A stretch of 64,000 nt of DNA from a virus (IMGVR_UViG_3300049061_000067:9-64008), one strand, 5' to 3'. Shown: positions 4,732 to 21,418, counted from the first letter of the stretch. Program-made: numbers and translations. The notes: a model not told the origin generated them from the sequence alone.

Positions 4732-5591
4732 TTGCGTGCGACGGCTTTGACGCGTGGTGGAATGGCTTCACGTAATGGTTGACCTTCCAGACCTACCAGT
4801 TTAACCGATGCGGGGTCAGTTTCACGCCACAGGTTCAGCACCCACTCGATTACCGCTGCTTTGACGTCTGCCGGAGTCTCACACCAGCCCCAAATTGCCG
4901 AAATAGTGATCGGCACGCCTATCCACCAGCCCGGCCATGACGAGTAGTTGTAGAAATTGCTGAATGGAGCCAGCATGCCATTGCTGGACGTCAGCACCAG
5001 ATAGCCATCCTGCTCGGCAAAGGTGGGCACCGTGTAGCCCTCTGGCAATGTAAGCGCTGTGTCAAGTGAGCCTGCAACATACGGCGGCAAGTGTAAGTAG
5101 TTTGTGCCGTCGCTATAGAAGGTGCGTGTTGTAGCAATAGGTATCGGCGCGGGGTTAAAGTAACCTTCGGGCACTCCGCACTCAAGGTCAAACATGCGAC
5201 TGGCTTGCTCGATGAGTGCGTCCAACTCGGCAGGCGTAAATACTGTGACGGTTGCTGAGCCACCTGAGCCCGCTCCGCCCTGCGCTCGGCGTCGCACTTC
5301 AGTTGATGAGCAATAGGCAACGGAACGCTGAATACGAATCAGGATTGAGCGATTTTCCGTCTGCGTGTTGCTGGCGTCATCAACCGCGACAATCGTGTTG
5401 ACTAACTCATAAACTTCGCCCCACGTTCCGCCACTCAGCTTTACCTGCGTCGCGGTATCCGTGAACGCATCCGCTACAATGGTGATTCCCGCTGGACCGA
5501 CCCACGAAGACGATTGAATGGTGAGACCACCTAACCAGTCGACCCAGCCGATTTCAAAATCAAGTGTTTCAGTCGGTTCTTTAGTGAACAC
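4695..5591 (-). CDS. Head-tail connector (gp6-like C-terminal half) with an extra N-terminal domain
   Basis: C-terminal half (FTPAELDALIEQASRMFDLECG...IEWVLNLWRE) resembles gp6-type head-tail connectors. About 100 extra N-terminal residues. Confidence 0.4.
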   Translation of the reverse strand: MFTKEPTETLDFEIGWVDWLGGLTIQSSSWVGPAGITIVADAFTDTATQVKLSGGTWGEVYELVNTIVAVDDASNTQTENRSILIRIQRSVAYCSSTEVRRRAQGGAGSGGSATVTVFTPAELDALIEQASRMFDLECGVPEGYFNPAPIPIATTRTFYSDGTNYLHLPPYVAGSLDTALTLPEGYTVPTFAEQDGYLVLTSSNGMLAPFSNFYNYSSWPGWWIGVPITISAIWGWCETPADVKAAVIEWVLNLWRETDPASVKLVGLEGQPLREAIPPRVKAVARKWRAKVAGPAFT

Positions 5592-7211
5592 TTAGAGAAC
5601 CTCCGATTGAATTTCAGAGTCTATTTCTCTGATACGTATTTCGCTACCAGCTTTTGACCTACGCGATTCGGCGCCTATGACCAATGTTTGCCTCGGTGTA
5701 AAAGTGGCTGTCTGAATTATAGTACCAGAAGTTGCTATCACTACAGTGCAATTCGTTAGAGATAAGCGTTCGTGTGGCGGTGCTAAAGCCAGACCAGACA
5801 ATTCAATAGATCCCTCGGCAATGAATAAACCGCCCGCTTCGGAGATTGAAAGGAAGTCACTGGATGAAGCGATATCGCAACCCGCGCTCAGCGATGCTGC
5901 TCGTAGCAGTTCTTGATGTCCAGCCGAGTCAATGCTGGTGGTAACGGAGACAGTGATCGACATTTCAACCGTAGTAAAGAAGACGGCTGAAACCGCAATA
6001 CCAGAAGTCGAATCAATTCCCGTAGCGCGTTCAAGAATAGCCAGTCCGCCAGAGGCAATCTCGCCTGTTGTAGTAATAGACGCCGAACGCTCGATATCCC
6101 CTGCGCCTGCCTGAACTTGACCGGCACTTTCGATCACCGCATTGATGCTAGTCGTTGATGTACTTTGTATGATTGAGAAGAAGATTCCGACTGCCCCGAT
6201 ACTCCCGATGACCTCTGTGAGGGACCCACGTTCAAGAACAGATACGAATTCGCTTGATACAGTGAGATCACTGACTCCGTCAATAAGTACGCTTGCTGTA
6301 AATAAAGAGAACGACTCACCAGCCGCAGCAATGGTCATATTAGCGGTAATCCCCGCAGCCCCATTGAGCACGGAGAAAAAGGTTGACGTGCCAGTAATGC
6401 CGACAGACGCATTAAATTCCGCTGATCTTTGGAGTGCCCGCTGGCCCGAAGTTGATACAACGCCAGCACCGTCTACCAACGCCGTTCTCTCGAACACGGA
6501 AAGGAATGTAGCCGCAGAAGCGATTGCTCCCGCCCCGCCGATCAATGCTGACCCGGCAAGTAGGGCACTCCCATCCAACTCCATTGCGTGAGAGCAAAAG
6601 ACAGTGCTTGAAGCTGCGCCAAAAGTGATTGTCGTTCCGGTGAATCCTGAAGCCCGAGAAGCGGACTCCAATGCCACCGTGTCGTTAGATTGGCTGGTAT
6701 CTAAAACCTCCGTCCAGTTCGTCGGTGCGGTCGTTGTGGTGTCGGCGCTGCCTTGGACAACGAGTGTACCGTTACCAGTAAGGGCTGATTGATTAAGAGC
6801 GGGAGCCGCAGTGGCTGCTGCTTGGTTATTTTGGGAGCCCTTGCTGCGAACCGCATTAGCACCTGTTCTGCTAATTCCAGTGATCGGAATCACGTGAATC
6901 GTGCCGCTGCTGTTACTGCCTGTTGCAACGGTTATGACTGTCGATGTTGTATTAACCATCAACGCAGTTCGGATAAACACCGACATGCGATAGTTCACCG
7001 ACGAGATGGTGAAGTTCATCACATCAATGAGATCGTAAGTTCCGCTACCGTTGTTATCTGAACAAGTTGGGGTATCGTTGGTATTCGCCGCGACGCAGCA
7101 ATAGACAACCACTAAGTCACCCACTGCGGGGGTGAAAGTAGCCGTGCGGTTTCCAGTTCCCGAAGAAGCACCGCCCGACGCTACGCCTGCCGTACGAACC
7201 GCGAAGGCCAT
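5592..7211 (-). CDS. Large virion-associated repeat protein B (539 aa): N-terminal globular domain plus ~22-aa tandem repeats
   Basis: ORF track. Periodic F(F/L)SVxER...G...S repeats through the C-terminal two thirds. Paralogue of 7212-9362. Confidence 0.6.
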   Translation of the reverse strand: MAFAVRTAGVASGGASSGTGNRTATFTPAVGDLVVVYCCVAANTNDTPTCSDNNGSGTYDLIDVMNFTISSVNYRMSVFIRTALMVNTTSTVITVATGSNSSGTIHVIPITGISRTGANAVRSKGSQNNQAAATAAPALNQSALTGNGTLVVQGSADTTTTAPTNWTEVLDTSQSNDTVALESASRASGFTGTTITFGAASSTVFCSHAMELDGSALLAGSALIGGAGAIASAATFLSVFERTALVDGAGVVSTSGQRALQRSAEFNASVGITGTSTFFSVLNGAAGITANMTIAAAGESFSLFTASVLIDGVSDLTVSSEFVSVLERGSLTEVIGSIGAVGIFFSIIQSTSTTSINAVIESAGQVQAGAGDIERSASITTTGEIASGGLAILERATGIDSTSGIAVSAVFFTTVEMSITVSVTTSIDSAGHQELLRAASLSAGCDIASSSDFLSISEAGGLFIAEGSIELSGLALAPPHERLSLTNCTVVIATSGTIIQTATFTPRQTLVIGAESRRSKAGSEIRIREIDSEIQSEVL

Positions 7212-9362
7212 CTAAAGCGTTCTGTTCTCCTTTCCAATGGGTTGAACACGATATTCCGCATTAACTGTTGCGCGTCGCGTTGGGTGAAAGCCAACTGTCG
7301 GAACACCACCTGAACTCGTTATGGTCGCCGTGCAGTTGAATGACACCAGCCGGATATTATCCCTTTGCCCAATAGTTGAGACATCAGATTGCGCGGCAAC
7401 GGTTCCTGCGCCTTCAAGAACTGAGAAGAATGACGATGAGGCGGAAATGGCCCCGCTTGTAACAACCAATACAGCCCGTTCATGGGTTGCGCTCCCTGGC
7501 TGAATTTCGCCAGTACTTGTGATCAACGCAGAGACGTTAAAATCAGCAATGGATTGAACTTGTGAAAAGAATATGGACGAGGTGTCGATCCTGCCCGCGC
7601 AATCAAGCACCACCGAACGCTCAAATACGGAAAAGAACTGCGTGGAAACGCCTACACTAGCTGTAGCATCGATCTGAACCGTAGATTCAGAAACGGAAAA
7701 GAACAGGGCCGATGACTCAATCTCGGCTGTCGCGTTGATCAATGCAGTAGATTGAAGAATTGAGAAAAACGAAGCCGCGCTCTCTACGCTTCCGGCAACG
7801 CCTAAATCTGAGGTTCGCTCCAGTACCGAGAAGGAGAGCGCGGAGGTCCCAATTACACCTGAACAATCAACCGACGCCGACCGCTCAAATGTTGCTGCGG
7901 GGCTTGAAATGGTTCCCGCAGTCGTGATGCTACCGATGGCCGAGAGAACAGTAGCGCGGGAGAGTTGTCGCACGCCTGAAGCCGTGATGGCTGCGACCGT
8001 ATCAAACGAACCAGCTAGGTTGAAGACCGAAAAGAAAACCGCAGAAGCCGTGACCGCGCCAATCCCGTCGAGTAACACTGATCGGGCATGCTCGGTAACA
8101 CTCGAGAGCCCGATAATTTCCACTAAACCCACCGCGGTGGGGCTTGCTGTCGATAGAGTAAACGAGGCTGAAGCCGTAGAGCCGGCAGCATTAAAGACCT
8201 GATCGGCGCTGGAAATACCTAATCCGTCTATACGCTCAATCCAGCCTGACGCTACGGTAAATGTGGGAACCGCATCCGCAATACAGGTTGCCTGAAAGAT
8301 ACATTTCGTAGCAGTGCGCGTGAGCGCGTCCCATGTGCTGGTGGTTGAGGACGCATTCTGGCGTACGTTAACCGCGCCGATTGGACTTGTCTGATTGCAG
8401 TTGTAGTAAGTGCAAAGTTGTACGGAGATTTCGCCTGAGCCTGTACGGTTGAACCGCACATCTAACGACCCATCATAGACCGCCATGTACTTCCTGATCG
8501 TTGTAGCTCCGCCCGAGGTCGTAGTGGACCACGTGGCTATTTCAACCCAATCTGCCGGTGTGTTCGGGCTAGGTGCGGTACCCGCCGCTTCTACCGTGGC
8601 GATTACCAGATCTTTATTGCCATTCACGTCAGTGGCGGTTGTTCCCGCTGGCAAGGTTGGGGTGACGCTAGTTCCGGTCGCTGTGGCCTGTGAGGCTGAG
8701 CGGTAGTATGGATAATCGGCTGATGGCACTGCGATGATTCCGGCAAACCACCTAACGCCACTTGTAGGCGAAGCGTCTTGATTGCTGAGCGTGGTGTTCT
8801 GATCGGCAATTACACGCTCTGCCAAGTTTCCTGCCAACGTTCCACTGATTACCACTTCTTCGTCTTGAACGTAACCGGATGGGTCAGGCGCACTTGTTGC
8901 AGAGCGGCTAAAGTAGAAATGCAGTACATGCATTTCAGGCGCTAATGTAGTAATAGTCGACGGTCGGACGGGGTTGGCCGTACCGGTAGTGAAAGCATTA
9001 GCTGACCACGCAGGAAGGGAGAATACACCCTCTTCGCTGGCACCATCTTCGGACCAAGCAAAAGCAATCCTGCTTACAGTCGCACCAAGTGTGAAGGTAG
9101 GATTAGCAAGAGGAAGAGTGTCGGTTGAGAGTACGCGGCGATAGAAAAGCGAGCCGACAACACCATTAGCTGCCGTACCGACTATGTTCTGCGTTCGCCG
9201 GGACCAGCCAGCAGGGTTGCCTAACCATGCGACGTTACCAGTGTTCCCAATGGCAATCTTAATGATGTCGCCTGCGGCGTGTGTGGGTAAGGTGACAGCA
9301 ATAGTTGTTCCAGTGCCGCCGGGGTTAGAGGGTGTTGAGTCTCGAATCGTTGCGTTAGACAC
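7212..9362 (-). CDS. Large virion-associated repeat protein A (716 aa): N-terminal ~430-aa domain plus ~22-aa FFSVxER tandem repeats
   Basis: ORF track. Repeats FFSVLERTSDLGVAGSVESAAS / FFSILQSTALINATAEIESSAL / FFSVSESTVQIDATASVGVSTQ and so on. Confidence 0.6.
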   Translation of the reverse strand: MSNATIRDSTPSNPGGTGTTIAVTLPTHAAGDIIKIAIGNTGNVAWLGNPAGWSRRTQNIVGTAANGVVGSLFYRRVLSTDTLPLANPTFTLGATVSRIAFAWSEDGASEEGVFSLPAWSANAFTTGTANPVRPSTITTLAPEMHVLHFYFSRSATSAPDPSGYVQDEEVVISGTLAGNLAERVIADQNTTLSNQDASPTSGVRWFAGIIAVPSADYPYYRSASQATATGTSVTPTLPAGTTATDVNGNKDLVIATVEAAGTAPSPNTPADWVEIATWSTTTSGGATTIRKYMAVYDGSLDVRFNRTGSGEISVQLCTYYNCNQTSPIGAVNVRQNASSTTSTWDALTRTATKCIFQATCIADAVPTFTVASGWIERIDGLGISSADQVFNAAGSTASASFTLSTASPTAVGLVEIIGLSSVTEHARSVLLDGIGAVTASAVFFSVFNLAGSFDTVAAITASGVRQLSRATVLSAIGSITTAGTISSPAATFERSASVDCSGVIGTSALSFSVLERTSDLGVAGSVESAASFFSILQSTALINATAEIESSALFFSVSESTVQIDATASVGVSTQFFSVFERSVVLDCAGRIDTSSIFFSQVQSIADFNVSALITSTGEIQPGSATHERAVLVVTSGAISASSSFFSVLEGAGTVAAQSDVSTIGQRDNIRLVSFNCTATITSSGGVPTVGFHPTRRATVNAEYRVQPIGKENRTL

Positions 9363-9368
9363 ATGCGT

Positions 9369-9734
9369 TTAGTCGCCAAGTCGCCCAACAATAGAGAAGA
9401 GCTGTCCGTCGAAGACCGTGACTCGCACAGTGATGAAGCGTGCTGTCGGGACTACTGCCTGAGCATAAATCGCGTCTCCCTGCGTGAACTGCAATTGCGG
9501 TATTTCCCCTTCATTGTTATGGGTAAAAATCCTGGTTTCCATAAAAGGGTCGCCTGTCAGTCCCTCGCTGGCCTGTCTGATAAAGACACTATAAAAACTT
9601 TCATCAGTCGATAACTCCAGTTGAGCTTCGTATTCTCCACCAGTACGCAACTGAAACGGAAAGAAGGTGTGCAAGTTGTTGGTGAGGGTTCCGCCAAAAG
9701 GAAAGACGGCATATGCTGCTGTACCGTAACTCAT
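9369..9734 (-). CDS. Hypothetical structural protein
   Basis: ORF track. Sits in the structural operon. Confidence 0.4.
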   Translation of the reverse strand: MSYGTAAYAVFPFGGTLTNNLHTFFPFQLRTGGEYEAQLELSTDESFYSVFIRQASEGLTGDPFMETRIFTHNNEGEIPQLQFTQGDAIYAQAVVPTARFITVRVTVFDGQLFSIVGRLGD

Positions 9735-10372
9735 CCCGCGCTCCTCTTCACGATTCCAGTGATCGAATCATAATAAAGCGCATTTGCAATAGACGGGTCG
9801 GCATTTGGTATGTTATCCAGCACCACTTGCCCCGCTAAGTGGACTTGCCCAGTGCTGTCATCAGCCCGGACCGCCACGCCAGTGTTATTACCATCCAAGT
9901 CGCCGATCCCAGCCACGTTGCTATCAAGTCTCAGTAATAATCCGCCTGATAACTGCACCATAACGGCGAACATTTGCAGGACATCATCGACACTGAGGGT
10001 GAAATCACTTGCTGCTACAAAGTACTCAGTGCCAACCTTGGATACGTCAAGTAAATGGTTGTTAACCAGATCCGCGGTTAGACCAGCGACGATCTGGTAA
10101 GTCTTTCCGTCAATATGATGATCTACGGCTGCTGTGCCTTCCTGACCCCGTTCAATGGTATCGAATGTATCATCAGTAATCGCGGTGACGCGGATAACCT
10201 CGACATCAGGATCGTCCGAGGGATCTGGGAAATCAGTGGAGTTCCAGATCGTTGCGTTAAAAGGAGGGGATGGGAATCGCGCGCCATTATTGGCGCTGAG
10301 ATCCAAAGAGGTATCGGTGTCAAGAATGCCTACTGCCAGTGTTCCTTTAGCAAAGTTCTTAGCTAAATCCAT
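9731..10372 (-). CDS. Hypothetical structural protein (213 aa)
   Basis: ORF track. Start overlaps the stop of the upstream ORF by 4 nt. Confidence 0.45.
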   Translation of the reverse strand: MDLAKNFAKGTLAVGILDTDTSLDLSANNGARFPSPPFNATIWNSTDFPDPSDDPDVEVIRVTAITDDTFDTIERGQEGTAAVDHHIDGKTYQIVAGLTADLVNNHLLDVSKVGTEYFVAASDFTLSVDDVLQMFAVMVQLSGGLLLRLDSNVAGIGDLDGNNTGVAVRADDSTGQVHLAGQVVLDNIPNADPSIANALYYDSITGIVKRSAG

Positions 10373-10381
10373 TTATTACTC

Positions 10382-10828
10382 CTAGTCTGCGGCAGATACA
10401 CTGAGCGAAAGAAAACCAATCTCGTGATTGCCGCTCATGTTGACGCTTCCGCCCGCTTCTGTGCAGGTATCAAGCTCGCTAGCAGCAAACAGTGCTGCCC
10501 TAGAGGTCTGCCCGGTGAGTGACAGGCTTCGTAGATGCGCGGCTAAACTTCCCGGAGAAAGACGTGGTGGCAGGTTGGTCTTGTTTAAGTGCCATGAGCT
10601 TTCAGATCGTTTCATACCCATAACAATTGAAAGATAGTTATCAGTTCCCACGCGGCTCCCGCTCATATTGATGGCACACTGGTCCTGATTACCCGCTTCC
10701 AGTTCGGCCACAACAAATGCAACTGCTCTCTGCCGCTGTTCGTTATCAGAAGCATTACTCAGCGGTTTGAGACGGCTTAACTCATCGATCATAGTCTCGC
10801 GATCACTTTGTTTGATAATTGACCACAC
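10382..10828 (-). CDS. Hypothetical structural protein (148 aa)
   Basis: ORF track. Confidence 0.4.
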   Translation of the reverse strand: MWSIIKQSDRETMIDELSRLKPLSNASDNEQRQRAVAFVVAELEAGNQDQCAINMSGSRVGTDNYLSIVMGMKRSESSWHLNKTNLPPRLSPGSLAAHLRSLSLTGQTSRAALFAASELDTCTEAGGSVNMSGNHEIGFLSLSVSAAD

Positions 10829-10851
10829 TGGTTTGCGCTCACCTTTCTAAA

Positions 10852-11229
10852 TTATGTAAACGTCAGATCGAGATCACCAGTCGGAATCCGAAATGTATCC
10901 CCCGCTGTTACTGGTGCCGATGAAGAAAGATCGTCACGCCCAAGGAAGTTTCCGCCAGATGAGGCATCCCACAAACTGATCCATGTGTAAGTCTCAGTTG
11001 TGCTGACATTCAGCCACTCCAAAGCAGCGGTATTCGCGATGGCCCTGCTGGCGGCGCCCGCCCCAAAGGTACCTTGCTGGCGGGTTGTTTCTGTTGCCGC
11101 ATTCGATGTACCCGCCGATCCCGGATCACCCAAATGAAGTTTTGCGAATAACCCAGCCTCACTATAGGCAACCGCGCGCGCAACCGCATCAAGAAAACTG
11201 TTGGCTACCAGATCGCTCCATGTTCCCAT
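10852..11229 (-). CDS. Hypothetical structural protein (125 aa)
   Basis: ORF track. Confidence 0.4.
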   Translation of the reverse strand: MGTWSDLVANSFLDAVARAVAYSEAGLFAKLHLGDPGSAGTSNAATETTRQQGTFGAGAASRAIANTAALEWLNVSTTETYTWISLWDASSGGNFLGRDDLSSSAPVTAGDTFRIPTGDLDLTFT

Positions 11230-11242: not shown

Positions 11243-12553
11243 TTACGCAGCTTTCGTGCGGCCTCGTTTCTTGTTTTCATCTGGTGCGGCAATCATCTTG
11301 TTCTCAGATGGGGCTTCAATTGCCTTGGTCTCACTGTCAGCCCCAATCCATCCGTGTTGCAGTGCTACGGCCGCGGGGATTGATGTGCCCCTACCCGCAT
11401 ACAATGTTACTGCGTCGCTTGGTATGCGCTGATCATTCGTCGCCTTAAAGTTCCCGTCCCGCAATTTCCAGATCCACTTGTCGCAGGTCCACACCTTCAT
11501 ATTGAAATCCTTCCCTCGATAGCGCTCGACTGTTTCAGTAAACGCCTGCCCCAGTCGCTCAAACTCACGCTCCGGTTCAATGGACCGCGCCAGTTCAAGT
11601 ACAATCTGCGAGCGCTCGTGATAGTAGAAGTCGTCAGTTATCAGGCGCACAACTTCATTGAACCATGCTGCTACGTCGTTGCGGTTGATGAAGATACCTG
11701 CTGTGGGGCCAAATGCTTCCTGTAGTCCCAGCGTCGGATGCGCGACTGTTGGAATGCCCGCGCAAGCAGCTTCAATGCCTACACGCCCGTAGGACTCATA
11801 CTCTGACGGCATCAGCAGCACCTTAGTCTTGCGAAAGACATGGCGAATATCAGGTGTGTGTGCCATCCACTCAATGTTACCACTGGCAGGTATTGCGCCG
11901 CCTTTACGCAAGGCGTCAGGCGCAAGAATCATCTGCTCGCCATAGCCGCCCTCAACTGCAAGGAATTCCCTGTCAGGCATCAATCTCGCCAGCGCCTTGA
12001 ATGTTTCAACTCCTTTGCCCGGTGTCGGGTTTACTAGCGTGATCTTCGTGCCGCGCTCGCATTCATAGTGCTCGCGTTCAACCACAGGATGGACTACCAC
12101 TGACGGCGCAAGCCACTCGGCAGGCATGGTCAACCCATTGTACGAGCTTGGGCTTGCCGCCAGCCAGTGCGAGTTGTACACCGTCAACGCGTTCTTGTAT
12201 GGCACACGCGCATCCACGCGCCAGCACATCATCTGCGCGTCGTTGTGGACAAAGTGGACTAGGGGAATCTTGGTTGACATTGCCAGCATCATTGCCTGAT
12301 TGGTGAGATCAAGGTGCGTGACGAGTAAATCCGAACCCGCAACGTAATACTCCAGCCATGACTGCTGACCACGACGAGGCGGGCGAACTACGCTAATGCC
12401 GTCGATTTCGTAAGGGGCGGTCCTGCTGTTCGCGCAGATCACGCGCACCTGATGGCCGCGCTTGACCATTGCGCGCAGGGCTGCGTGCAACGTGGTTTCA
12501 GAACCGGCGCAGTGCTCAGGCGGGAAAAGGTGGATTAGGGCTGTTAGCTTCAT
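11243..12553 (-). CDS. GT4-family glycosyltransferase (retaining, GT-B fold)
   Basis: C-terminal EYESYGRVGIEAACAGIPTVA matches the GT4 E-x7-E/GxP motif. N-terminus MKLTALIHLFPPEHCAGSET matches the GT4 N-terminal pattern. Start chosen at the second Met; the ORF track start is 12592. Confidence 0.65.
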   Translation of the reverse strand: MKLTALIHLFPPEHCAGSETTLHAALRAMVKRGHQVRVICANSRTAPYEIDGISVVRPPRRGQQSWLEYYVAGSDLLVTHLDLTNQAMMLAMSTKIPLVHFVHNDAQMMCWRVDARVPYKNALTVYNSHWLAASPSSYNGLTMPAEWLAPSVVVHPVVEREHYECERGTKITLVNPTPGKGVETFKALARLMPDREFLAVEGGYGEQMILAPDALRKGGAIPASGNIEWMAHTPDIRHVFRKTKVLLMPSEYESYGRVGIEAACAGIPTVAHPTLGLQEAFGPTAGIFINRNDVAAWFNEVVRLITDDFYYHERSQIVLELARSIEPEREFERLGQAFTETVERYRGKDFNMKVWTCDKWIWKLRDGNFKATNDQRIPSDAVTLYAGRGTSIPAAVALQHGWIGADSETKAIEAPSENKMIAAPDENKKRGRTKAA

Positions 12554-12611
12554 TAGCAAGATGGCGGGCGGCTGGCCTTCCGAGGAAAGCAATTAACCGC
12601 CCCTTGCGCCG

Positions 12612-13946
12612 TTACGAATTCGTGCCCGCAAAAAGGTCTATTTTAACTACGGCGGGGGGTCTTAAAACCCCGAACGCCCATCGGCCTTCATACAGGATGT
12701 CAATAATGTTGCGCTCGAAGTGATCGCGGTTTGAGTCGGTGATGTACACCGTTGGATCTTGTCGGTCCCAGACCACCAACTGTTTCAGGTCGCCGGAGTA
12801 GCCGGTGCCTTGCGGAATGACTTCAGACTCGATTACGGGCAGGCCCCAGAGCATCTTTGTGCCCATCTGCATGGGACCGCCAAAGTAGAACTGGCCCTGA
12901 GCGCCACGCGCAAGGTCAATGGTTTCCCAGTCGTAGGGGTTGAGCAGAAAGCCGGTTGAGCGCGCGCGGCCCTGGACCATTGCGGCAGTGCGTGCTTTGC
13001 GGGTCGTTGTTAGCAAGCCGCCGGTAGTGTCCTCGCTGTCGGCAACAAACGGCTGCGGGGTCAGGTTTGGCGTGTTCTCAAGTCCTGTGAAATGGTTCGC
13101 GCCCCCGGGACCGGCAATGATCTCTTCTTCCAGTTCAAGGTCAATGTCTAGCCGCATAAAGTTCGTCATCATCGATTGCAGTTGCGGCGCGTCACTGAGG
13201 ATCGTGCGCGTGGCCTGCATAATGACGGCAATGGTCTTGACACCTGTTTGCACTACTTCCAGCGCCATGCTTGCCTTGGGCTTGAGTGCCAGATCGTCGG
13301 TTGCCGATGTCGCCTCTGGAACAATCTTCGCAGCACGTGTCAGGGAATTAACCCTCACGTACTCGATCAGGTTCGAGCCTGTTTGCAGGATGGTGATCAC
13401 ATCGCGAATTGAAGGCTGACGCAACGGCAGTTCAACAGGCCATGGGCCATAATCGCGGCGCACTAAGCCGCCGCCTGCGGTCACGGGTACCGACATTACC
13501 AGATCCTTGAACGACAGGTCGCCCAGACCAACATCTTTCAGCGCGATGGTAGGCGAGCGACCAAACCTGACCGACGCGTTCATCTCCTTGCCTTCGGGGG
13601 CAATTGACTCGCGCCACGTCTTGAACTCAGGCGCGTTGATAATCGCCTCGCCCATCGTCTTGATTTCAGGCTGCCCGTTGCCGTTGCCATTGCCGTTGCC
13701 AAAGTCAGGGCGGTCCACAGGCTGCGCGAGAAAGGTTTCAATTGCTTTCAGGCGTTTGCTGCGGTCGGCAAACTTGTTCTCTTCGTCAACCTTGGCGCTC
13801 AGTTCCTCAATCGACTTCCAGCGCGTGTCAAGCTCGGCTTGCTGCTCAGTAGTAGGCGTCTCTGCACCCTGCTTGTCCCAGAACGCTTTCTCGGCCTCTA
13901 CCAGCGCCTTAAGCTCCCGTGCTGCTGTTTTCTTCTCTTCCGGCAT
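12612..13946 (-). CDS. Major capsid protein, HK97 fold, with an N-terminal delta/scaffold-like coiled coil
   Basis: 444 aa. The N-terminal ~100 aa are coiled coil and end in a GNGNGNGNG linker, followed by a capsid-like domain. Lies directly downstream of the prohead protease gene with no separate scaffold gene. Confidence 0.65.
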   Translation of the reverse strand: MPEEKKTAARELKALVEAEKAFWDKQGAETPTTEQQAELDTRWKSIEELSAKVDEENKFADRSKRLKAIETFLAQPVDRPDFGNGNGNGNGQPEIKTMGEAIINAPEFKTWRESIAPEGKEMNASVRFGRSPTIALKDVGLGDLSFKDLVMSVPVTAGGGLVRRDYGPWPVELPLRQPSIRDVITILQTGSNLIEYVRVNSLTRAAKIVPEATSATDDLALKPKASMALEVVQTGVKTIAVIMQATRTILSDAPQLQSMMTNFMRLDIDLELEEEIIAGPGGANHFTGLENTPNLTPQPFVADSEDTTGGLLTTTRKARTAAMVQGRARSTGFLLNPYDWETIDLARGAQGQFYFGGPMQMGTKMLWGLPVIESEVIPQGTGYSGDLKQLVVWDRQDPTVYITDSNRDHFERNIIDILYEGRWAFGVLRPPAVVKIDLFAGTNS

Positions 13947-13971: not shown

Positions 13972-15132
13972 CTACGCCAGCGCTCGAATGGCGAGGCTTT
14001 GCATGCGTAGCGATTGAGTCCTTAGCGCAGCCACGTCGATTGACTTCTCTTTCGGCTTGGGTTCGGAAGCGGCAAGTAACTCGTCAAGTGCGTCTCTTGC
14101 CGCCAGCACCTTTTTCCGATTTGAAGCAGAGAGCATCCGGCCTTCCTTGACCCGGTTCTCATGGTTGCGCTGCATATTGCTGGTGTGCTTCGCCAATGCG
14201 GATACCACATCGTCAAAGGACTCAAAGGAGTCGGATACCGGCTGACCTTTGAGGTAAAACTCGTCGTCAGAACTGTTCAAAAACTCTTCAATCTGCGCCG
14301 TGACCAGCGGAATCATTGTCGGCGGGTACTCGTTAAAGGCTTCGGCTACCTTCGCCTTCCAGTCCATGACTACGCCGGTTACATCGGAGTCTTTAGCTGT
14401 CTCGGCAATCTTGCGAACTACGCGGCGCAATGCAGACTCAACCTCCCATGTAGAGGGAGTCGTTTGGGCCATCTCCTCAGCGAGCATGCCTTTTAGTTCA
14501 CCGTCGACAATTGACATCTTCACGCCAGTCGCCATAGCCAGCTTCTGCATAGGTGAAGTCACCAGTGAATCCTCAATCGTTTCGCCTTTAAGCAAGATTC
14601 GGATACGAGAGAACTCCTGAGCCTTTAACAGGTTCGCGGCAAGTCGCTCGGGTTTGACAAACTGTGGCAACTGCTCTTTGTAGTCCTTAGCCTCGATATA
14701 CTGTTTCTGCTTGACGGAGTAACCAAAGGAGAAGCCCATCGTCTTGCCTGCTTCCATACGCTCGCGAGCCTTAGTGCGAATGTTTTGGGAGTCTGGCGTG
14801 GAGTGGAATTGAGACTTTACAAAGAAGCCGTAGTCGTCTTCTTTGGCGTCGACGGGGAACCCTACCGCCTCGGAGAACGACCAATCATGTGAGTGCGCGG
14901 TGAACCCGCTTTGAAGGTAATCTGAGATTCCATCCGCAAAGAAGCCCTTGACAACAATGTCGCCGCCTTCGTCAATCTCGCCAAAGACGCTACGGTATCC
15001 CTCAATCGTTCCTGACCCTTCGTCAGAAACTTTTAATGCTTTCAAGTCGATGAATTTGCGCTCTATCGGCATAAGCAAAAAGCCCGTCGCGGCCTCCATT
15101 GCTGGAAACCACGGCGGGCAGGTCGTCATCAC
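13972..15132 (-). CDS. Prohead protease (HK97/U35-like) with a C-terminal coiled-coil extension
   Basis: N-terminal ~170 aa resemble a Caudovirus prohead protease. Position immediately upstream of the capsid gene. Confidence 0.6.
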   Translation of the reverse strand: MMTTCPPWFPAMEAATGFLLMPIERKFIDLKALKVSDEGSGTIEGYRSVFGEIDEGGDIVVKGFFADGISDYLQSGFTAHSHDWSFSEAVGFPVDAKEDDYGFFVKSQFHSTPDSQNIRTKARERMEAGKTMGFSFGYSVKQKQYIEAKDYKEQLPQFVKPERLAANLLKAQEFSRIRILLKGETIEDSLVTSPMQKLAMATGVKMSIVDGELKGMLAEEMAQTTPSTWEVESALRRVVRKIAETAKDSDVTGVVMDWKAKVAEAFNEYPPTMIPLVTAQIEEFLNSSDDEFYLKGQPVSDSFESFDDVVSALAKHTSNMQRNHENRVKEGRMLSASNRKKVLAARDALDELLAASEPKPKEKSIDVAALRTQSLRMQSLAIRALA

Positions 15133-15161: not shown

Positions 15162-15332
15162 TCAAGTCGCAGTCTTCTGTCGCAAGCCTTTCACGCGGTC
15201 GATCAGACTGTACAGCTGCCGCTCAATCTTTTGTAGCTCTTGCTTCGTGTCCTGGCGCACATCTGGTTTGACTAAAGGAGCACTCTGCGAATTCAGCAGT
15301 GTTGGTTCGGGCTTAGGGGATTGCTGGCTCAT
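15162..15332 (-). CDS. Small coiled-coil protein (56 aa), translationally coupled
   Basis: ATGA overlap with the stop of 15329-15619. Below the ORF-track size cutoff. MSQQSPKPEPTLL...ELQKIERQLYSLIDRVKGLRQ. Confidence 0.3.
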   Translation of the reverse strand: MSQQSPKPEPTLLNSQSAPLVKPDVRQDTKQELQKIERQLYSLIDRVKGLRQKTAT

Positions 15333-15619
15333 TGAATAGTGTCAGGCCAAACCTCAGCAACCGTAACAGGGCTAAACCCGTCTGGTACTTCCGCTGAAAG
15401 TCTTAGAGGCTGTAACGGCCGATTGAACGTCAAGACTTCAAGGTAAATATAGCCCTGTTTAAGAATCTGCCGCTTCTCTTCCTCACTTAAAACCCAACGC
15501 GTCAGTACCGTGCCGTCCTCAAGCTTTACAGCCGGAAGAGGCAGATACTCAGGCTGGTCTTTGGCATAAGTAACCTCAGATACATCAGCGTTAGGAATAA
15601 CCGGACTTACAGGCTGCAT
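15329..15619 (-). CDS. Hypothetical protein
   Basis: ORF track. Confidence 0.4.
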   Translation of the reverse strand: MQPVSPVIPNADVSEVTYAKDQPEYLPLPAVKLEDGTVLTRWVLSEEEKRQILKQGYIYLEVLTFNRPLQPLRLSAEVPDGFSPVTVAEVWPDTIQ

Positions 15620-15709
15620 TTCATTCTCCTAAGTCGCGGGCCTTTCAGCCATCACGCCACACTTTAACACAACCATACGGTCAGAATGCAACAAAAGTTA
15701 TTTCGCTAG

Positions 15710-15988
15710 TCAGTAAATCGGCTTAATTTCGTTCAGAGGTAACTTCTCGTTAAAGACTATTTCAACACCCCACAACGTAGAGCAGGGCTCCGTGCGTGGC
15801 AGTAAAGCGAACCTACTTTCAATCTCCCAGAGGGTCACGTGACTCATCTCAAATCGATTGGGAGTGACTTCCTCCTTGCGCTTCGTATCTTGAAGCAAAG
15901 CGAATAGTTTCCGCAAGTCTGGCAAGCCGTTATCAGGATCGTCGGGATTACTTGATGTGTACGTTACGTCCAATTGATAACCTTCCAT
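15710..15988 (-). CDS. Hypothetical protein
   Basis: ORF track. Confidence 0.4.
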   Translation of the reverse strand: MEGYQLDVTYTSSNPDDPDNGLPDLRKLFALLQDTKRKEEVTPNRFEMSHVTLWEIESRFALLPRTEPCSTLWGVEIVFNEKLPLNEIKPIY

Positions 15989-15989
15989 C

Positions 15990-16400
15990 CTATTCCTTTG
16001 GTATTTCCGGCGATGGCATCCAGTAGCGCACGTCTACCCCTCTGCGCATCCCCTCTCGGGCGTCAACGTACACAAATCCCGCGTCGTCAAAGTACTCTCC
16101 GCTGATAGCCGCATCGGAGTAATTGAGATCATATTCAGCAAGCAATACACGTTGCGCATTCTCTGGCAACTTTTCCTTAACGCTAATAAAGTCAGACGCT
16201 AGCCATGCAGCCTCAATGCTCTGCTTGTCAAACTGACACTGATAACAGCCTTCTTCTTTCCAGCGGAGCTGAAACTGGCAAGGACACAACATCACACGTT
16301 GATACAGCCGGCGTAGCGCTTGGGCAACGGGATCAACACGGTCTCCCGCAGACCCACTAAAGTTTTCGATCTGCCGCTCAATTTCAGGCCTCATAATCAA
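15990..16400 (-). CDS. Hypothetical Cys-containing protein
   Basis: ORF track. Adjacent to the fucosyltransferase gene. Confidence 0.4.
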   Translation of the reverse strand: MIMRPEIERQIENFSGSAGDRVDPVAQALRRLYQRVMLCPCQFQLRWKEEGCYQCQFDKQSIEAAWLASDFISVKEKLPENAQRVLLAEYDLNYSDAAISGEYFDDAGFVYVDAREGMRRGVDVRYWMPSPEIPKE

Positions 16401-17169
16401 TTATCTGCCAGCCTTCGCTGTAGATATCCTCGCCAGTGATCGGCGTATATCGCGGTCCAAACCACGGGCGTGGTGCAATCACGCGCTTGTTTGATGCCTC
16501 ACCCAGAATCGCTGCCATTGCGCTGTAGGCTGAGTTGGCTATGATGAACGATGCGCATCTTTTAAGTAACCGGAAATCATCAAGGTAGTTGCGTCCCTCG
16601 CTGTAATCAACGTCACTACCAAACATTCGCTTGCACTCGGCAATATCGTCGCTGAAGACAAGAAACCGAGGCTTAGGTCTTCCAAACATGGTTGCGTCGT
16701 AATAGAACCGTTGCATTGCTGCCCGGTAGTAACTCTCAGGCACACGCGGGTGATAGCCGCCAGTGTAATCGCCGCGCCTGACATGAATGCCGACGTAATC
16801 GCTTTGTGCAGGCTCGTCAGTCATGCGCAGCCACCAGCAAACCTCGTCAAGACAGTGGACGAAATAGCGCACACTTTGCAGGTGCCCGCTGAGGCTGACA
16901 CTCTCCGTTAGGCGTACGTCGTGATAGCCCCAGTCAATGAAACGGTCAGGCAGTGTTGGACCATCGTAGACAGGCAGTGGGTTAACAAAGTGACGATATA
17001 CGTCGCAGTCCTCAGTTGAGCCAAAGCGTTGTTGATGGTCATGATTGATCCAGCGCGGAAAGGCGAAGTCAAAGCCGTTGCGACGAGCAATCCCTATCGT
17101 CGACGCCACCTGAAACAGACCGTTCGCGAATCGGCCGTAGCTGCCTAGGGCAGAAAATGTCACTATCAC
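16384..17169 (-). CDS. GT11-like alpha-1,2-fucosyltransferase
   Basis: N-terminal GRFANGLFQVAS resembles the GxGNQmFQyA motif. HVRRGDY matches the HxRRxD motif of fucosyltransferases. Also VFSDD and ANSAYSAMAA motifs. Confidence 0.6.
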   Translation of the reverse strand: MIVTFSALGSYGRFANGLFQVASTIGIARRNGFDFAFPRWINHDHQQRFGSTEDCDVYRHFVNPLPVYDGPTLPDRFIDWGYHDVRLTESVSLSGHLQSVRYFVHCLDEVCWWLRMTDEPAQSDYVGIHVRRGDYTGGYHPRVPESYYRAAMQRFYYDATMFGRPKPRFLVFSDDIAECKRMFGSDVDYSEGRNYLDDFRLLKRCASFIIANSAYSAMAAILGEASNKRVIAPRPWFGPRYTPITGEDIYSEGWQIIDYEA

Positions 17170-18119
17170 GACTGCTCACCCCACACTTGATGCACCATGC
17201 CTCCCCCTGATCCAGCATCTCCCACTCGTGCGCGATACCAGTCGAAGGTTGAGCAGAGTCCGTCATACAGGCTGATTTTAGCATGCCAGCCAAGCGCAGC
17301 GAGGCGCGTGCTGTCCAGTAGCTTGCGTGGCGGACCATCGGGCTTGCTGGCATCAAACTTTATCTCGCCACGATAGCCGACAACCTCAGCAATCATGTGG
17401 GCCAGTTCACTGATGGTGACTTCCTGCCCGGAACCTACGTTGATTGGCTCGCTGTCATTGTATTCAGCCATCAGGATTATCAGTGCATCAGCAAGATCGT
17501 CAACGTGAAGGAATTCGCGCAGCGCCTTACCAGTGCCCCAAAGCGTGATTGAGCGATCCTCGTTGCATGCTGCCCGGTACAGCCGCGACATTAGCGACGG
17601 GATCACATGCGCGTCGATGGAGTCAAAGTGATCGTTAGGGCCGTAGAGGTTGGTAGGCATGGCGCAGATGGCGTTAAAGCCGTATTGCTTGCGGTAAGCC
17701 TGGCACATCTTCAGTCCCGCAATCTTGGCAATTGCGTACCACTGGTTTGTCGGCTCAAGTGGGCCGGTGAGTAGTGCGTCTTCACTGATTGGCTGTTGTG
17801 CGGCACGCGGGTAGATGCAGGATGAGCCGAGGAACAGAAGTTTCCCGCAATCGTTTAGCCGGGCAGCGTTAATAACATTGCACTGGATTAGAAGATTGTC
17901 GCGGATGAAGTCAGCGGGACAGGTGGAGTTCGCGTGAATGCCGCCGACCTTGGCCGCCGCGAGATAGACATGCTGGATCTTATTACCCCAAAAGAAACCG
18001 TAGGTGTCTGCCTGGCTTCTTAGGTCAAGTTGCGCGTGGGTATGTGTAACAGCATCAGGTATACGCCGCAGCAATGCACTACCAACAAGTCCAGTGTGAC
18101 CTGCAATGTAAACGCTCAC
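17166..18119 (-). CDS. fcl: GDP-L-fucose synthase (GDP-4-keto-6-deoxy-D-mannose 3,5-epimerase/4-reductase)
   Basis: MSVYIAGHTGLVGSALLRRI (Rossmann GxxGxxG) resembles the E. coli Fcl N-terminus. Size and pattern of a short-chain NAD(P)-dependent epimerase/reductase (YxxxK region present). Confidence 0.75.
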   Translation of the reverse strand: MSVYIAGHTGLVGSALLRRIPDAVTHTHAQLDLRSQADTYGFFWGNKIQHVYLAAAKVGGIHANSTCPADFIRDNLLIQCNVINAARLNDCGKLLFLGSSCIYPRAAQQPISEDALLTGPLEPTNQWYAIAKIAGLKMCQAYRKQYGFNAICAMPTNLYGPNDHFDSIDAHVIPSLMSRLYRAACNEDRSITLWGTGKALREFLHVDDLADALIILMAEYNDSEPINVGSGQEVTISELAHMIAEVVGYRGEIKFDASKPDGPPRKLLDSTRLAALGWHAKISLYDGLCSTFDWYRARVGDAGSGGGMVHQVWGEQS

Positions 18120-18575
18120 TTATAGTGCTCCGTACTCATGCAGATGAATTACCGCCGGTCGATGGCCGTGTGGCCGCTGGCCTGCTTGAAACGCACGCCA
18201 CTCGAATTGCTGGTCCAACTTGCTCCAGTGCTTGTCCATGCCCTGCCAGATGTCGGGTAGCAGGTTCATTAGTTCGCCGGAGAACCTGACGCATCCAAAG
18301 CTATGAAAGATGCCAATGCCATGTTGATCGTACGAGTACGCACACCACGACGCAGGGCAAGCGGCTAACTCTTCCAATGCGCCCGGCCACGGCAGGATGT
18401 CGTGCTCGACTAGGACAACTGCTTCGCGTTGCCGCCATAGCTCCGTGAGTAGGGTCCAGTAAGCATCATCACTGGCACTGACGTCCACATAGCACGGATT
18501 GTAACGCCTGAGTAGCCATTGTTGCTCCAGCCGCAACCTCGTGTAGGGAACAACAACCTTCATGCCCGTAGCCAA
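18120..18575 (-). CDS. Hypothetical protein (151 aa)
   Basis: ORF track. Start abuts the stop of the upstream gene. Confidence 0.4.
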   Translation of the reverse strand: MATGMKVVVPYTRLRLEQQWLLRRYNPCYVDVSASDDAYWTLLTELWRQREAVVLVEHDILPWPGALEELAACPASWCAYSYDQHGIGIFHSFGCVRFSGELMNLLPDIWQGMDKHWSKLDQQFEWRAFQAGQRPHGHRPAVIHLHEYGAL

Positions 18576-18584
18576 GCCAGTCCG

Positions 18585-18815
18585 CTAATCATCATTACAC
18601 TGTTTCAGCGCTGGGGTATCACGAGAACACTGGTCCACGGCCTTGCGAGCTACGGCGTCACCGGCACGTTCCAGTGACTTGCCAGCGCTGCGGGCTACGG
18701 GACAGGGGGCTTGGCGCAGTGCAGCACCGGCTAATCCTGCCGCGTGGCCAGCGGTTACGGCCCCTGTGCGCATTGTGTTGGTGTAGTGGTCGGTTAGTGT
18801 TTTCTTCTTGCTCAT
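18585..18815 (-). CDS. Hypothetical small protein
   Basis: ORF track. Confidence 0.3.
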   Translation of the reverse strand: MSKKKTLTDHYTNTMRTGAVTAGHAAGLAGAALRQAPCPVARSAGKSLERAGDAVARKAVDQCSRDTPALKQCNDD

Positions 18816-18833
18816 ATGGCTTGCTTCCTTTGT

Positions 18834-19466
18834 CTATTTGCTCAACCAGGATCGATTAAAGTACAGCTCCCACTCCAGCAACGGATGCGGCTCACACTCG
18901 GGGAAAAGATGCCCGTAATCCTGCCTGACGAGGATCAGGTTACCTGTGTGACACAAGACGAAGTAGCCATGCTCCAGCGCTGCCACCGTCATGGTCCAAT
19001 AACCCACGCCGCCGTCGCTGTTGATTCGCTCGTCAGGCGGTTCGATGCTGGAGTCAATTTCGACTATCACGATCTTGGGGCGGGCTTGCATGCCGCAGAA
19101 GATTGCATAGTCGCCGCCATCAGTGTCCAAACTAAGCAGGTCGCAGCGATCACCAACAAAGGCGTTGACGTTGCAGGCGTCTACGCGGGAGCACTGGCAA
19201 CGGACAAGCGGATTATCTCGCCAGTTCTCCTTGCACTTGAGGTAGAGATTGTAGTCGGATTCAACGAACAGGCCGGACCGGCCAGCGTTTTCCAATAGCA
19301 GCGCCGTGTTTGAGCAGAACAACCCGTCTGAGCCGCCAATCTCGACACAGTAGCCCTGGTTCTGGTTTAGACGCACAAGCGCTTCCAGTAGCACGCCTTC
19401 TTCGCCGTTCTGCGAAAACTTATAGTTGCGGGCATATTGGCGTAGGAAGCTAAGCATGGCCCACAC
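18834..19466 (-). CDS. FkbM-family methyltransferase (putative sugar O-methyltransferase)
   Basis: CVEIGGSDGLFCSNT...LFVESD pattern resembles the SAM-binding core of the Methyltransf_21/FkbM family. Confidence 0.5.
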   Translation of the reverse strand: MWAMLSFLRQYARNYKFSQNGEEGVLLEALVRLNQNQGYCVEIGGSDGLFCSNTALLLENAGRSGLFVESDYNLYLKCKENWRDNPLVRCQCSRVDACNVNAFVGDRCDLLSLDTDGGDYAIFCGMQARPKIVIVEIDSSIEPPDERINSDGGVGYWTMTVAALEHGYFVLCHTGNLILVRQDYGHLFPECEPHPLLEWELYFNRSWLSK

Positions 19467-19908
19467 TCAGATTCCATCCCAACTTACGTCCGTTCAAAAC
19501 AAAGCCCCTGATATTTAGGTTTTTAGAAATCTCAAGATGTAGTAAAAGCTCCGCCTGTCTTCCGTACTCGTCATGGAAACTCGCATGCTCGTTATTAGTT
19601 AGATTCCTGCGAACATAATTCCAATCCGGATGTTCAGCACCTTTGGGTAGGGAGACTTCGCAGCCGCAGCAACCGTAAAACGTAAACACCAGTGGACAGG
19701 TACGAGTACGGATTAAATCCTGTTTCCACTCCCCCGTCTCATCCATAAGTTGACGGGCAGTCGCATCAAGGAACAATTGACAGAATTCTCTTGCGCAAAG
19801 TGGCTCCCGTGTAAAGGGATTTCCAGCGATTGCCCTTCCCTCTACACAGGCTATTGCTATCAGACCCGCGCTCTTCGCTATTAGATCTCGCCTAGTTATA
19901 TCAGCCAT
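19450..19908 (-). CDS. Hypothetical Cys-rich protein with a Tat-like N-terminus (TRRDLIAKSAGLIAIA)
   Basis: Twin-arginine-like motif followed by a hydrophobic stretch. CCGC cluster. Confidence 0.35.
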   Translation of the reverse strand: MADITRRDLIAKSAGLIAIACVEGRAIAGNPFTREPLCAREFCQLFLDATARQLMDETGEWKQDLIRTRTCPLVFTFYGCCGCEVSLPKGAEHPDWNYVRRNLTNNEHASFHDEYGRQAELLLHLEISKNLNIRGFVLNGRKLGWNLSVGHA

Positions 19909-20188
19909 TGAGCTTTAACCTTTCTTTCAACACCGCCGCCTTTGCCGGACAAACCCGCCGTGGCATCAGATTACCACAGTACTCGCAGAGCATCAGGCTG
20001 TAACTGATATTGAATCCCCTGCCGCTCTGGAATCCGCGCCCATCGTCAGGATGTCTGCCACGCCCGCTTGCACGCTGGCGAGTCATGTAGCATTCCAGTT
20101 GCGAGGCGTCTAACCCGTTGGCGCGAACCAGATCAAGTAGCGCGCGCTCTTCAGATGCAAGCAGAGGTTGCAGGGCTTGGTTCGTCAA
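19901..20188 (-). CDS. Hypothetical protein
   Basis: ORF track. Overlapping, coupled start. Confidence 0.35.
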   Translation of the reverse strand: MTNQALQPLLASEERALLDLVRANGLDASQLECYMTRQRASGRGRHPDDGRGFQSGRGFNISYSLMLCEYCGNLMPRRVCPAKAAVLKERLKLNG

Positions 20189-20502
20189 AGGTTCCGATCT
20201 TCTCTAAAGTTTTTCAGCACACCCGTACGGTATCTCTCCTGATTTCGCTGCTCGGTAATTACCGGACATATTGCTTCACCTACGGCGGGACTCTTAACCA
20301 CTTCTTCACCAAACTCTGTAACTTCGTAGAGATGCTCACGGAAAAGGTGAATACCGGGAACATCGTAGTCCGTGTTTAACTCTGCCCGCATTAATTCAGG
20401 TGACGGGTAGTAAAGCAGCGTGTTATCCGACTTGCGTAACCATACGTTACATTGCGCACAGTATCCGCCGTAATACCTTAGCTTCACGCTATTTCCTTCC
20501 AT
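20185..20502 (-). CDS. Hypothetical protein
   Basis: ORF track. Confidence 0.35.
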   Translation of the reverse strand: MEGNSVKLRYYGGYCAQCNVWLRKSDNTLLYYPSPELMRAELNTDYDVPGIHLFREHLYEVTEFGEEVVKSPAVGEAICPVITEQRNQERYRTGVLKNFREDRNL

Positions 20503-21260: not shown

Positions 21261-21418
21261 CTCAATCTCCCATCACGTCCGCGTAGCGGCGGTGCGCACT
21301 TAGTACACAATGGGCAATGCCGCTGATCGCATTTAGAATTGTGGCAACTCATACAGCCGTGCGGTCTAACTATTTCTCGTCTAACTCTTTCTCGCTTCTC
21401 ATGTTTTGGCTGTCTCAT
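21257..21418 (-). CDS. Micro-ORF, 53 aa, 6-Cys peptide (C-x2-C-x4-C ... C-x2-C-x2-C)
   Basis: ATGA overlap at both ends: the upstream TM ORF stop and the downstream GT start. Below the ORF-track cutoff. Confidence 0.35.
   Translation of the reverse strand: MRQPKHEKRERVRREIVRPHGCMSCHNSKCDQRHCPLCTKCAPPLRGRDGRLR

Follow-up and report, generated by a model that had tools for sequence, protein, structure and literature searches.

A GT4 glycosyltransferase gene beside the major capsid gene of an uncultivated phage: probable component of a phage-encoded virion glycosylation system

It has been known since 2023 that phages can encode the glycosylation of their own capsid and tail tube, when Freeman et al. 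(Cell Host Microbe 31:1216) reportedly demonstrated virion glycosylation in mycobacteriophages. So far this modification, which changes antibody recognition, has been demonstrated in a handful of mycobacteriophages. According to later reports, Che8, Corndog and Myrna carry O-linked glycans on the capsid and the tail tube, at the C-termini (PMC12363180, PMC12619734, PMC10877033, PMC13445384), as do the capsid and tail-tube subunits of Che8-type phages (PMC12619734; PMC10877033), and Che8 gp110 and Corndog gp38 are reported to be essential for glycosylation of the capsid (PMC12363180). Here we analyse a gene for a glycosyltransferase of the GT4 family (hereafter GT4) that follows the major capsid gene in a 64,000-nt stretch of viral DNA (IMGVR_UViG_3300049061_000067:9-64008), called the window in what follows, in which the relevant genes are all on the minus strand. 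The comparative evidence suggests, with a probability of roughly 0.65, that GT4 is one enzyme of a phage-encoded cytoplasmic system for glycosylation of the virion, most likely by O-glycosylation as judged from the genes.

Related strategies are known from other organisms. The chlorovirus PBCV-1 makes capsid glycans with fucose and methylated sugars by means of cytoplasmic glycosyltransferases and a sugar methyltransferase that it encodes itself, but this giant virus of eukaryotes has N-linked glycans, a double-jelly-roll capsid and enzymes unrelated to those of the window. In streptococci, the cytoplasmic GT4 enzymes GtfA and GtfB attach the first sugar to Ser/Thr residues of folded or unfolded protein, an example of direct action on protein within the GT4 family; unlike them, the window has no GtfB-like partner, and its GT4 bears no specific similarity to these enzymes (the fold search returns generic GT4 members only). 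Seroconverting phages (Gtr/O-antigen systems) also encode glycosyltransferases of families typical of lipopolysaccharide (LPS) synthesis, in membrane-bound systems that sit beside integration genes of temperate phages, with expression from the prophage, whereas the enzymes of the window appear soluble, are encoded in a head operon and keep their linkage to the capsid gene.

The only member of the GT4 family among 50,697 GenBank phage records is gp20 of the Streptomyces phage TurkishDelight (NC_073473), an uncharacterised protein of a phage for which no mention was found in the literature searched. It is 33-36% identical to the window enzyme over the whole GT4 domain, and its gene likewise lies between those of the major capsid and major tail proteins, both of which end in Ser. 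In contrast to the window enzyme, gp20 (L001:7945-9981; 678 aa) consists of two GT4 units fused in tandem, its gene lies two genes away from that of the capsid, with both in between, and no GT25, GT11 or GDP-L-fucose synthase (Fcl) gene is seen nearby. The elements of the window on which the comparison turns are the following.

11243-12592, minus strand: GT4 glycosyltransferase (GT-B fold, retaining type), listed open reading frame (ORF) with TTG start, 449 aa
12612-13946, minus strand: HK97-type major capsid protein with delta domain, 444 aa (PF05065 1.2e-30, phrog_10 2e-43)
12615-12629, minus strand: C-terminal tail of the capsid, ...LFAGTNS, proposed glycan acceptor
2961-3620, minus strand: putative major tail tube protein, 219 aa, assigned by position only
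2964-2981, minus strand: C-terminus of the tail tube, ...QNAGAQS, proposed second acceptor

A link between GT4 and the virion is suggested above all by gene position. The family comprises 396 protein-database clusters, the top 120 being full-length at more than 50% identity, and relatives are encoded by 204 IMG/VR stretches. Against these >200 viral contigs and ~400 clusters there is a single cultured phage. Capsids were located by iterated profiles in 85 loci, the window and 84 others that were retrieved, and representatives were confirmed with Pfam and PHROGs. In 69 of the loci, a major capsid gene precedes GT4 on its own strand, with a gap of at most 100 nt in 30 of these 69 and a single intervening gene of ~170-190 codons in about 30 more. 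The other 16 comprise eight with less than 0.8 kb of upstream DNA, three that end inside the gene cassette described below, four that could not be placed, and TurkishDelight itself, with an annotated capsid gene two genes upstream of GT4. The capsids found beside GT4 are of four kinds, namely two mutually distant groups of PF05065, the lambda gpE type (PF03864) and the SU10 type (PF17236). Across these groups the GT4 proteins are 33-55% identical and most of the neighbouring capsids do not find each other in BLASTP searches; as far as gene order can tell, GT4 has evidently moved between head modules and yet held the slot directly after the capsid gene. In bacteria the family is almost absent: a survey of 185,579 bacterial and archaeal species in GTDB, with one genome per species, gave five true relatives, three of them actinobacterial copies with a capsid gene directly upstream and another on a contig of an alphaproteobacterial metagenome-assembled genome with protease and capsid genes 1.2 kb upstream, and outside a few prophage-like or viral-looking contigs hardly any trace of GT4 was seen.

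Some features of this junction deserve mention in their own right. The wider capsid-GT4 gaps of close relatives hold either a fibre-like ORF or homing endonuclease genes of the HNH type (L005:6081-6680, L017:9448-10002 and L008:9202-9939, the first two on the opposite strand), which suggests repeated insertion of mobile elements at this junction. A further conserved family, of ~168 aa, adjoins GT4 in L076:9495-10004, L056:6803-7306, L030:7610-8143, L022:10755-11486 and about 20 other loci, within the capsid-GT4 interval when GC content is low and just after GT4 in some loci of high GC; it is probably a methyltransferase of the Methyltransf_23 type, since two scanned members matched that family, the ORF of the match not being pinned down. 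Two high-GC metagenomic loci (L023 and L025) have two separate GT4 paralogues after the capsid gene.

A second line of evidence is found at the ends of the structural proteins. Just as the capsid and the putative tail tube of the window terminate in …LFAGTNS and …QNAGAQS, the glycosylated phages have C-termini with a final Ser close to Gly, both in Che8 (capsid gp6, …FNKTGS; tail protein gp11, …QYSDGS) and in Corndog (capsid gp41, …VPLVGS; tail-protein homologue gp49, …DIKGDS), and the TurkishDelight proteins end in …SPGSTS (capsid) and …EFCVAS (tail protein). A terminal Ser was found in all 20 capsids of the window family and in all 16 full-length homologues of the tube, compared with 7.3% of 422 other ORFs in those loci. 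Eleven loci devoid of GT4 encode capsids 27-37% identical that are shorter by about five residues at the C-terminus (…KITLA, …KVTLP, …RVTGVT), with a final Ser in none (0/11), and the capsid relative of locus L196, adjoined by a GT4-like gene, ends in …ESGS. The high-GC phages with GT4 have capsids ending in …QAATAGS, with a final Ser in 15 of 18, and putative tubes (identified by position, with Phage_TTP_17 in five loci) ending in …EEHLS, …WGAS and …VNHS; in locus L043 the tail-tube terminus has the Ser that the capsid does not. These termini, like the enzyme families and the conserved gene linkage, are directly established. That the C-terminal Ser might be the acceptor of the glycan is a specific, testable hypothesis rather than a finding.

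The identity of the enzyme is well defined. GT4 scores above the Pfam cut-offs of PF13692 (46 bits), PF00534 (44), PF13439 (34) and PF13579 (34), and matches phrog_26352 (1.6e-67). Its AlphaFold2 (AF2) model, with a predicted local distance difference test (pLDDT) value of 82.7, shows the two Rossmann domains of the GT-B fold, and a Foldseek search of the PDB retrieves MshA (1e-16), BshA, PimA and PglA, with E from 1e-16 to 1e-11; the searches of the PDB and of viral structures gave generic GT4/GT-B neighbours only, with no clue to donor or acceptor. The EYESYGRVGIEAACAGIPTVA motif from which the original prediction had recognised the family maps to residues 264-284 (11741-11803) and holds the EX7E signature ESYGRVGIE (11771-11797), invariant in 21 homologues. 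An NPTxxKG motif is also invariant among homologues, and the catalytic motifs as a whole remain unchanged over those 21 proteins at 55-85% identity. The likely start is the ATG at 12553, used by the homologues, which yields a protein of 436 aa and a distance of 58 nt from the capsid stop (19 nt from the TTG), in agreement with the ~60 nt first indicated. The common operon first suggested is plausible, with no promoter- or terminator-like site between capsid and GT4, and such sites are regionally no commoner than in shuffled sequence. After the catalytic part (residues 1-345) comes a C-terminal extension (346-436) confined to the window's own family, which consists of a small beta domain (~354-400) and a disordered basic tail with P-ENK repeats; a database search with this C-terminal domain gave no candidates, local matches being restricted to the GT4 family of the window, and that it serves for docking to the capsid is only a guess.

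The remaining enzymes are encoded on the other side of the capsid gene, in an island upstream of the protease gene, so that the protease and capsid genes of the window have glycosylation genes on both flanks.

13972-15132, minus strand: S78 prohead serine protease (PF04586 1.4e-8, phrog_80 8.5e-18)
15162-26190, minus strand: island of ~11 kb between the MuF-like and protease genes
16384-17169, minus strand: GT11-family transferase, putative alpha-1,2-fucosyltransferase (PF01531 2.5e-14, phrog_2644 5.8e-35)
17166-18119, minus strand: GDP-L-fucose synthase Fcl (NCBIfam NF047922 2e-135; PDB 1e6u 2e-98)
18834-19466, minus strand: FkbM-like methyltransferase, weak assignment (PF05050 0.0031)
20484-21260, minus strand: conserved 258-aa cassette protein, co-occurring with the cassette in 19 other loci
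21415-21597, minus strand: 60-aa ORF with a strongly hydrophobic N-terminal segment …IALFVMACYGLIALVVGPVL…, directly downstream of the GT25-like gene
21594-22208, minus strand: GT25-fold (GT-A) glycosyltransferase with an EDD motif, 204 aa

The fucosylation island invoked at the outset is confirmed by the matches of Fcl to its NCBIfam model and to the E. coli GDP-fucose synthetase and by that of the GT11 protein to its family, the score of Fcl against NF047922 (451 bits) being just under the equivalog cut-off of 500. Because Fcl is present and no gene for Gmd was found in the window by tblastn, the phage must rely on the Gmd of its host. Most relatives are likewise endowed with Fcl and no Gmd; in one of them (L194:5753-6727) a Gmd (GDP-mannose 4,6-dehydratase, 4e-132) joins Fcl to complete the pathway from GDP-mannose to GDP-fucose. 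The 258-aa protein found no match in Pfam, PHROGs, NCBIfam or a PDB profile search, nor with Corndog gp36 or Che8 gp109 by hhalign, and the 60-aa ORF is possibly a small membrane protein.

Gene order in the relatives joins both sides. In L033 and L072 the protease, capsid, GT25-like, 258-aa, methyltransferase, GT11, GT4 and head-tail genes are contiguous in this order, and about 20 low-GC loci have capsid, GT25-like and GT4 genes in succession. GT11 lies directly upstream of GT4 in L033, L072 and L048-L050, and homologues of the FkbM-like protein occur in 17 loci, contiguous with GT11 and GT4 in the first two of these. In the family of the window the cassette genes are split around the protease-capsid pair, and the full gene set accompanies every capsid at least 45% identical to that of the window. 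From gene content and order, the island and GT4 are thus predicted to be one cassette.

Comparison with Che8 and Corndog centres on the 204-aa protein. The two enzymes reported in those phages, gp110 and gp38, are both PF01755 (GT25) proteins of ~210 aa. The AF2 model of the window protein (pLDDT 90.5) finds its best Foldseek matches in BFVD among GT25 proteins, down to 2.6e-17, and hhalign with its family profile aligns Che8 gp110 at E=0.0016 (125 columns) and Corndog gp38 at E=0.0017, across the EDD, YLG and W-T-HA motifs. The homologue from L033 passes the PF01755 threshold (25.7 bits), and a PDB profile search gave a weak match to the GT25 domain of procollagen galactosyltransferase (E 0.04). 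Membership in the same family as gp110 and gp38 is therefore indicated at the level of family and predicted fold, with weak support for direct homology.

Beyond this enzyme the systems resemble each other in plan and diverge in parts. A phage-encoded GT25-family enzyme is accompanied by further cytoplasmic transferases in all three phages, with a methyltransferase in Che8 and Corndog and a weakly assigned candidate for one in the window, and in Corndog the methyltransferase and three transferases occupy the portal-capsid interval, the slot of the window island; BLASTP and hidden Markov model searches against Corndog gp35-39 gave nothing significant beyond the weak GT25 match. On the other hand, in Che8 and Corndog the other transferases are GT2-like, the methyltransferase is of the TylF type and not FkbM-like, and the fucose branch of Fcl and GT11 is missing. 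The capsid of the window is in turn unrelated to theirs, and its glycosylation is a prediction from genes.

Altogether, these data fit a mechanism in which the head operon would express the capsid together with GT4 late in infection, and the genes just upstream of the protease would supply the GT25-fold transferase, GT11, Fcl, a probable methyltransferase and the 258-aa protein. These soluble enzymes would together build a short O-glycan, containing fucose and probably methylated, with GT11 adding fucose from GDP-fucose made by the phage Fcl and the FkbM-like protein methylating a sugar. The glycan would be placed on the exposed C-terminal Ser tail of the capsid (…AGTNS) and probably also on that of the tail tube (…NAGAQS), and the particle would end up coated with sugars, like those of Che8 and Corndog. 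The virion as acceptor, the modified residue, the order of the enzymes and the sugars other than fucose are what we infer here. Since GT4 is the sole glycosyltransferase family among 107 ORFs of seven high-GC loci, it should be able to initiate on protein, if such minimal systems act on protein at all. The recognition of a short terminal peptide would moreover explain how GT4 works beside unrelated capsids. The capsid-targeted glycosylation originally envisaged thus gains support from comparative evidence, with capsid and tail tube as the probable targets instead of the capsid alone. In its most general form, the proposal would be that capsid-adjacent GT4 constitutes a portable virion O-glycosylation module that reads short C-terminal Ser tags of capsid and tube subunits, which would account for its passage between unrelated head modules, that it is widespread in uncultivated phages, beyond those of actinobacteria, and that in this lineage it builds the first fucosylated and methylated glycan coat to be described on a tailed phage; this we advance tentatively, at somewhat less than even odds.

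Several observations weigh against virion glycosylation by these enzymes. Many of the loci are interrelated, so that the counts overstate the number of independent events. The rule of the C-terminal Ser fails in the low-GC group (0/30 capsids) and in the PF03864 and SU10 capsids. The putative tail-tube protein, assigned by its position only, has no family match and no meaningful PDB match (its matches to eIF5A look like chance and were discarded). The link to GT25 consists of the fold and of hhalign values of E ~0.002 at a low probability (15-16%), and the FkbM-like ORF reaches 18.1 bits against a PF05050 cut-off of 22.7. GT4 is absent from Che8 and Corndog, and its profile shows no similarity to Che8 gp108, a fusion of GT2 and TylF methyltransferase. 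The structural neighbours of GT4 are only 13-17% identical and none of them is a protein O-glycosyltransferase. Finally, no lysis or host-derived gene of the window was informative about the host.

Part of this evidence would be expected if GT4 and the island enzymes altered LPS, exopolysaccharide (EPS) or cell-wall glycans of the host during infection, be it for receptor masking, for superinfection exclusion or to keep progeny from sticking to debris, in which case adjacency to the capsid gene would reflect mere late timing or a tolerated moron slot. GT4, GT11 and GT25 are classic families of LPS, EPS and cell-wall enzymes and, together with Fcl, typical of O-antigen and colanic-acid-type synthesis, and the source annotation of GT4 homologues (Joint Genome Institute, JGI) reads 'glycosyltransferase involved in cell wall biosynthesis'; both facts count against a virion acceptor too. 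The nearest folds (MshA, BshA, PimA, PglA) use small-molecule or lipid-linked acceptors, and dependence on host Gmd and the small hydrophobic ORF at 21415-21597 point the same way. However, modification of the host envelope leaves unexplained both the constant slot after capsids of three Pfam families, where the capsid has been swapped, and the invariant Ser termini of capsid and tube, absent from relatives devoid of GT4. Nor does it sit well with the near absence of the family from bacterial chromosomes, or with the lack of Gtr-type, Wzx/Wzy and initiating transferases in the ~60 ORFs of the window that were scanned (some small ORFs fell outside the scan). Classical lysogenic conversion is made unlikely by the scanned ORFs, among which neither an integrase nor an integrase-sized unexplained ORF was found. 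We consider an envelope function unlikely on the whole.

Another possibility is that virion proteins other than the capsid are glycosylated, in particular the products of the genes that follow GT4.

5592-11229, minus strand: six-gene block between GT4 and the adaptor homologue
4695-5591, minus strand: adaptor homologue, matching the N-terminal domain of the fiber-tail adaptor Gp77 of podophage GP4

The block contains, as first described, four small ORFs (125, 148, 213 and 121 aa) followed by two repeat proteins (716 and 539 aa). The first ORF matches the 'fiber I' protein Gp80 of GP4 and the third has a tail-fibre N-terminus; the two repeat proteins, with ~25% Ser+Thr, have a 33%-identical region in common and a 22-residue FFSV periodicity seen at the protein level only. 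The gene after the block, earlier taken for a gp6-like connector, retains that character in part: the match is to the N-terminal domain of the Gp77 adaptor, and relatives have the homologue of this gene immediately after GT4. Fibre-like proteins placed right after GT4 in the window family, two of them S/T-rich, would be reasonable substrates, as would the tail tube alone, which keeps its final Ser in L043 where the capsid has none. Nevertheless, the relatives L002-L004 lack all six fibre-like genes and pass from GT4 directly to the adaptor homologue, and they, like all the other groups, which lack these genes too, keep the capsid-GT4 pair, so that the gene common to all groups is that of the capsid and not those of the fibres. 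A system directed at the fibre-like 716- and 539-aa proteins, or at the tube alone, is accordingly rather improbable. The block, being wholly absent from L002-L004, looks like an inserted neck- or head-fibre module.

It is even harder to reconcile the data with DNA hypermodification, in which GT4 would glycosylate hydroxymethylated phage bases in the manner of the T4 alpha- and beta-glucosyltransferases; enzymes of this kind have reportedly been treated by Pyle et al. Phage GT-B enzymes do glycosylate DNA, the fold search lists the T4 alpha-glucosyltransferase (1ya6) in 46th place, and a helicase-N6/N4 methylase fusion is encoded in the window, but the ORFs scanned, in a scan that was not exhaustive, include no hydroxymethylase, TET/5mYOX or C5-methyltransferase, GT4 belongs to the head operon and not to the replication module on the opposite strand, and neither a fucose pathway nor linkage to capsids is expected of a DNA transferase, which makes this role very improbable. 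An enzyme of conflict or anti-defence, acting on a host defence component or nucleotide signal, or a functionless moron is a similarly slight prospect, given that PF20706, a family of GT4 enzymes in conflict systems, is matched (32 bits, cut-off 26) over only 48 positions of its 385-position profile, within the generic EX7E region, that the catalytic motifs conserved over the 21 homologues indicate a selected function, and that the linkage pattern points to the head.

The delta domain of the capsid carries the GNGNGNGNG stretch (residues 83-91, 13674-13700) that had been singled out as an unusual linker. The stretch is there, and it proved an unremarkable 6-nt repeat of variable length, encoded by 4.3 tandem copies of the CCGTTG hexanucleotide (13675-13700); apart from the window, just two near relatives have it in full, and the other members of the family have a shorter or a different stretch. 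Its variation in length among relatives indicates that it is probably slippage-prone, and it may lie near the maturation cleavage site. It adds nothing to the argument for glycosylation and was dropped as a point of interest.

The rest of the window places these genes in their genomic context.

28707-30044, minus strand: large terminase (Terminase_6C/6N)
27110-28654, minus strand: portal (PF04860)
26226-27113, minus strand: MuF-like protein

Past the adaptor homologue, the tail genes follow in the order Neck1 (phrog_26), a 173-aa ORF, the 219-aa ORF, DUF7391 and the tape measure protein (phrog_8462), whose gene (1-2016) extends past the left end of the window. From this tape measure protein and from the siphophage tail modules of its relatives, the phage is predicted to be siphophage-like, and the same features ruled out the podophage suggested by the matches to Gp80 and Gp77. 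At the other end, an ORF for a Laminin_G_3 tail protein (61236-63989) stops ~10 bases from the right border and falls short of the 1384 aa of its homologue in L003. Relatives have genomes of ~65-69 kb, and the window probably represents a genome of this size, circularly permuted or circularised, that has been cut and lacks ~2-3 kb. Its GC content is 53%, it contains no tRNAs, no DNA match was found among the 50,697 phage records, and its structural proteins match families named after proteobacterial phages, e.g., Ralstonia phage GP4. The replication module (45026-48869 and 32004-33308) encodes a homologue of the DNA polymerase III beta-clamp, a D5-type primase-helicase and the helicase-methylase fusion, of 800 aa, and no DNA polymerase gene was found among the window ORFs scanned. 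Accessory genes encode a PAS-domain protein (53522-53956) and an SPFH/Band-7 protein (56478-57284), and a Phage_ABA_S sandwich-domain protein (23389-23811) and a DUF551 protein (15990-16400) lie amid the glycosylation genes of the island between portal and protease.

With respect to previous knowledge, what appears to be new is a role of the GT4 family in virion glycosylation, together with the fucose branch and the occurrence of such a system in phages of ~50% GC whose structural families are named after those of proteobacteria; in the accessible literature, no description was found of a rule placing GT4 directly after the capsid gene. If glycosylation of the virion by these enzymes is true, sugar-coated virions would be much commoner in environmental phages than the handful of mycobacteriophages suggests. 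The combination of a GT4 gene after the capsid gene with a Ser-ended capsid and tube would also provide a marker by which glycosylated phages can be recognised from sequence only, and the short C-terminal peptide with its soluble transferases may amount to a transferable tagging tool for glyco-engineering of phages and capsid nanoparticles. Fucose would then join the surface chemistry of phages, where it could affect their contact with biofilm matrices, with polymers of mucus and soil, and with lectin-like defences of the host.

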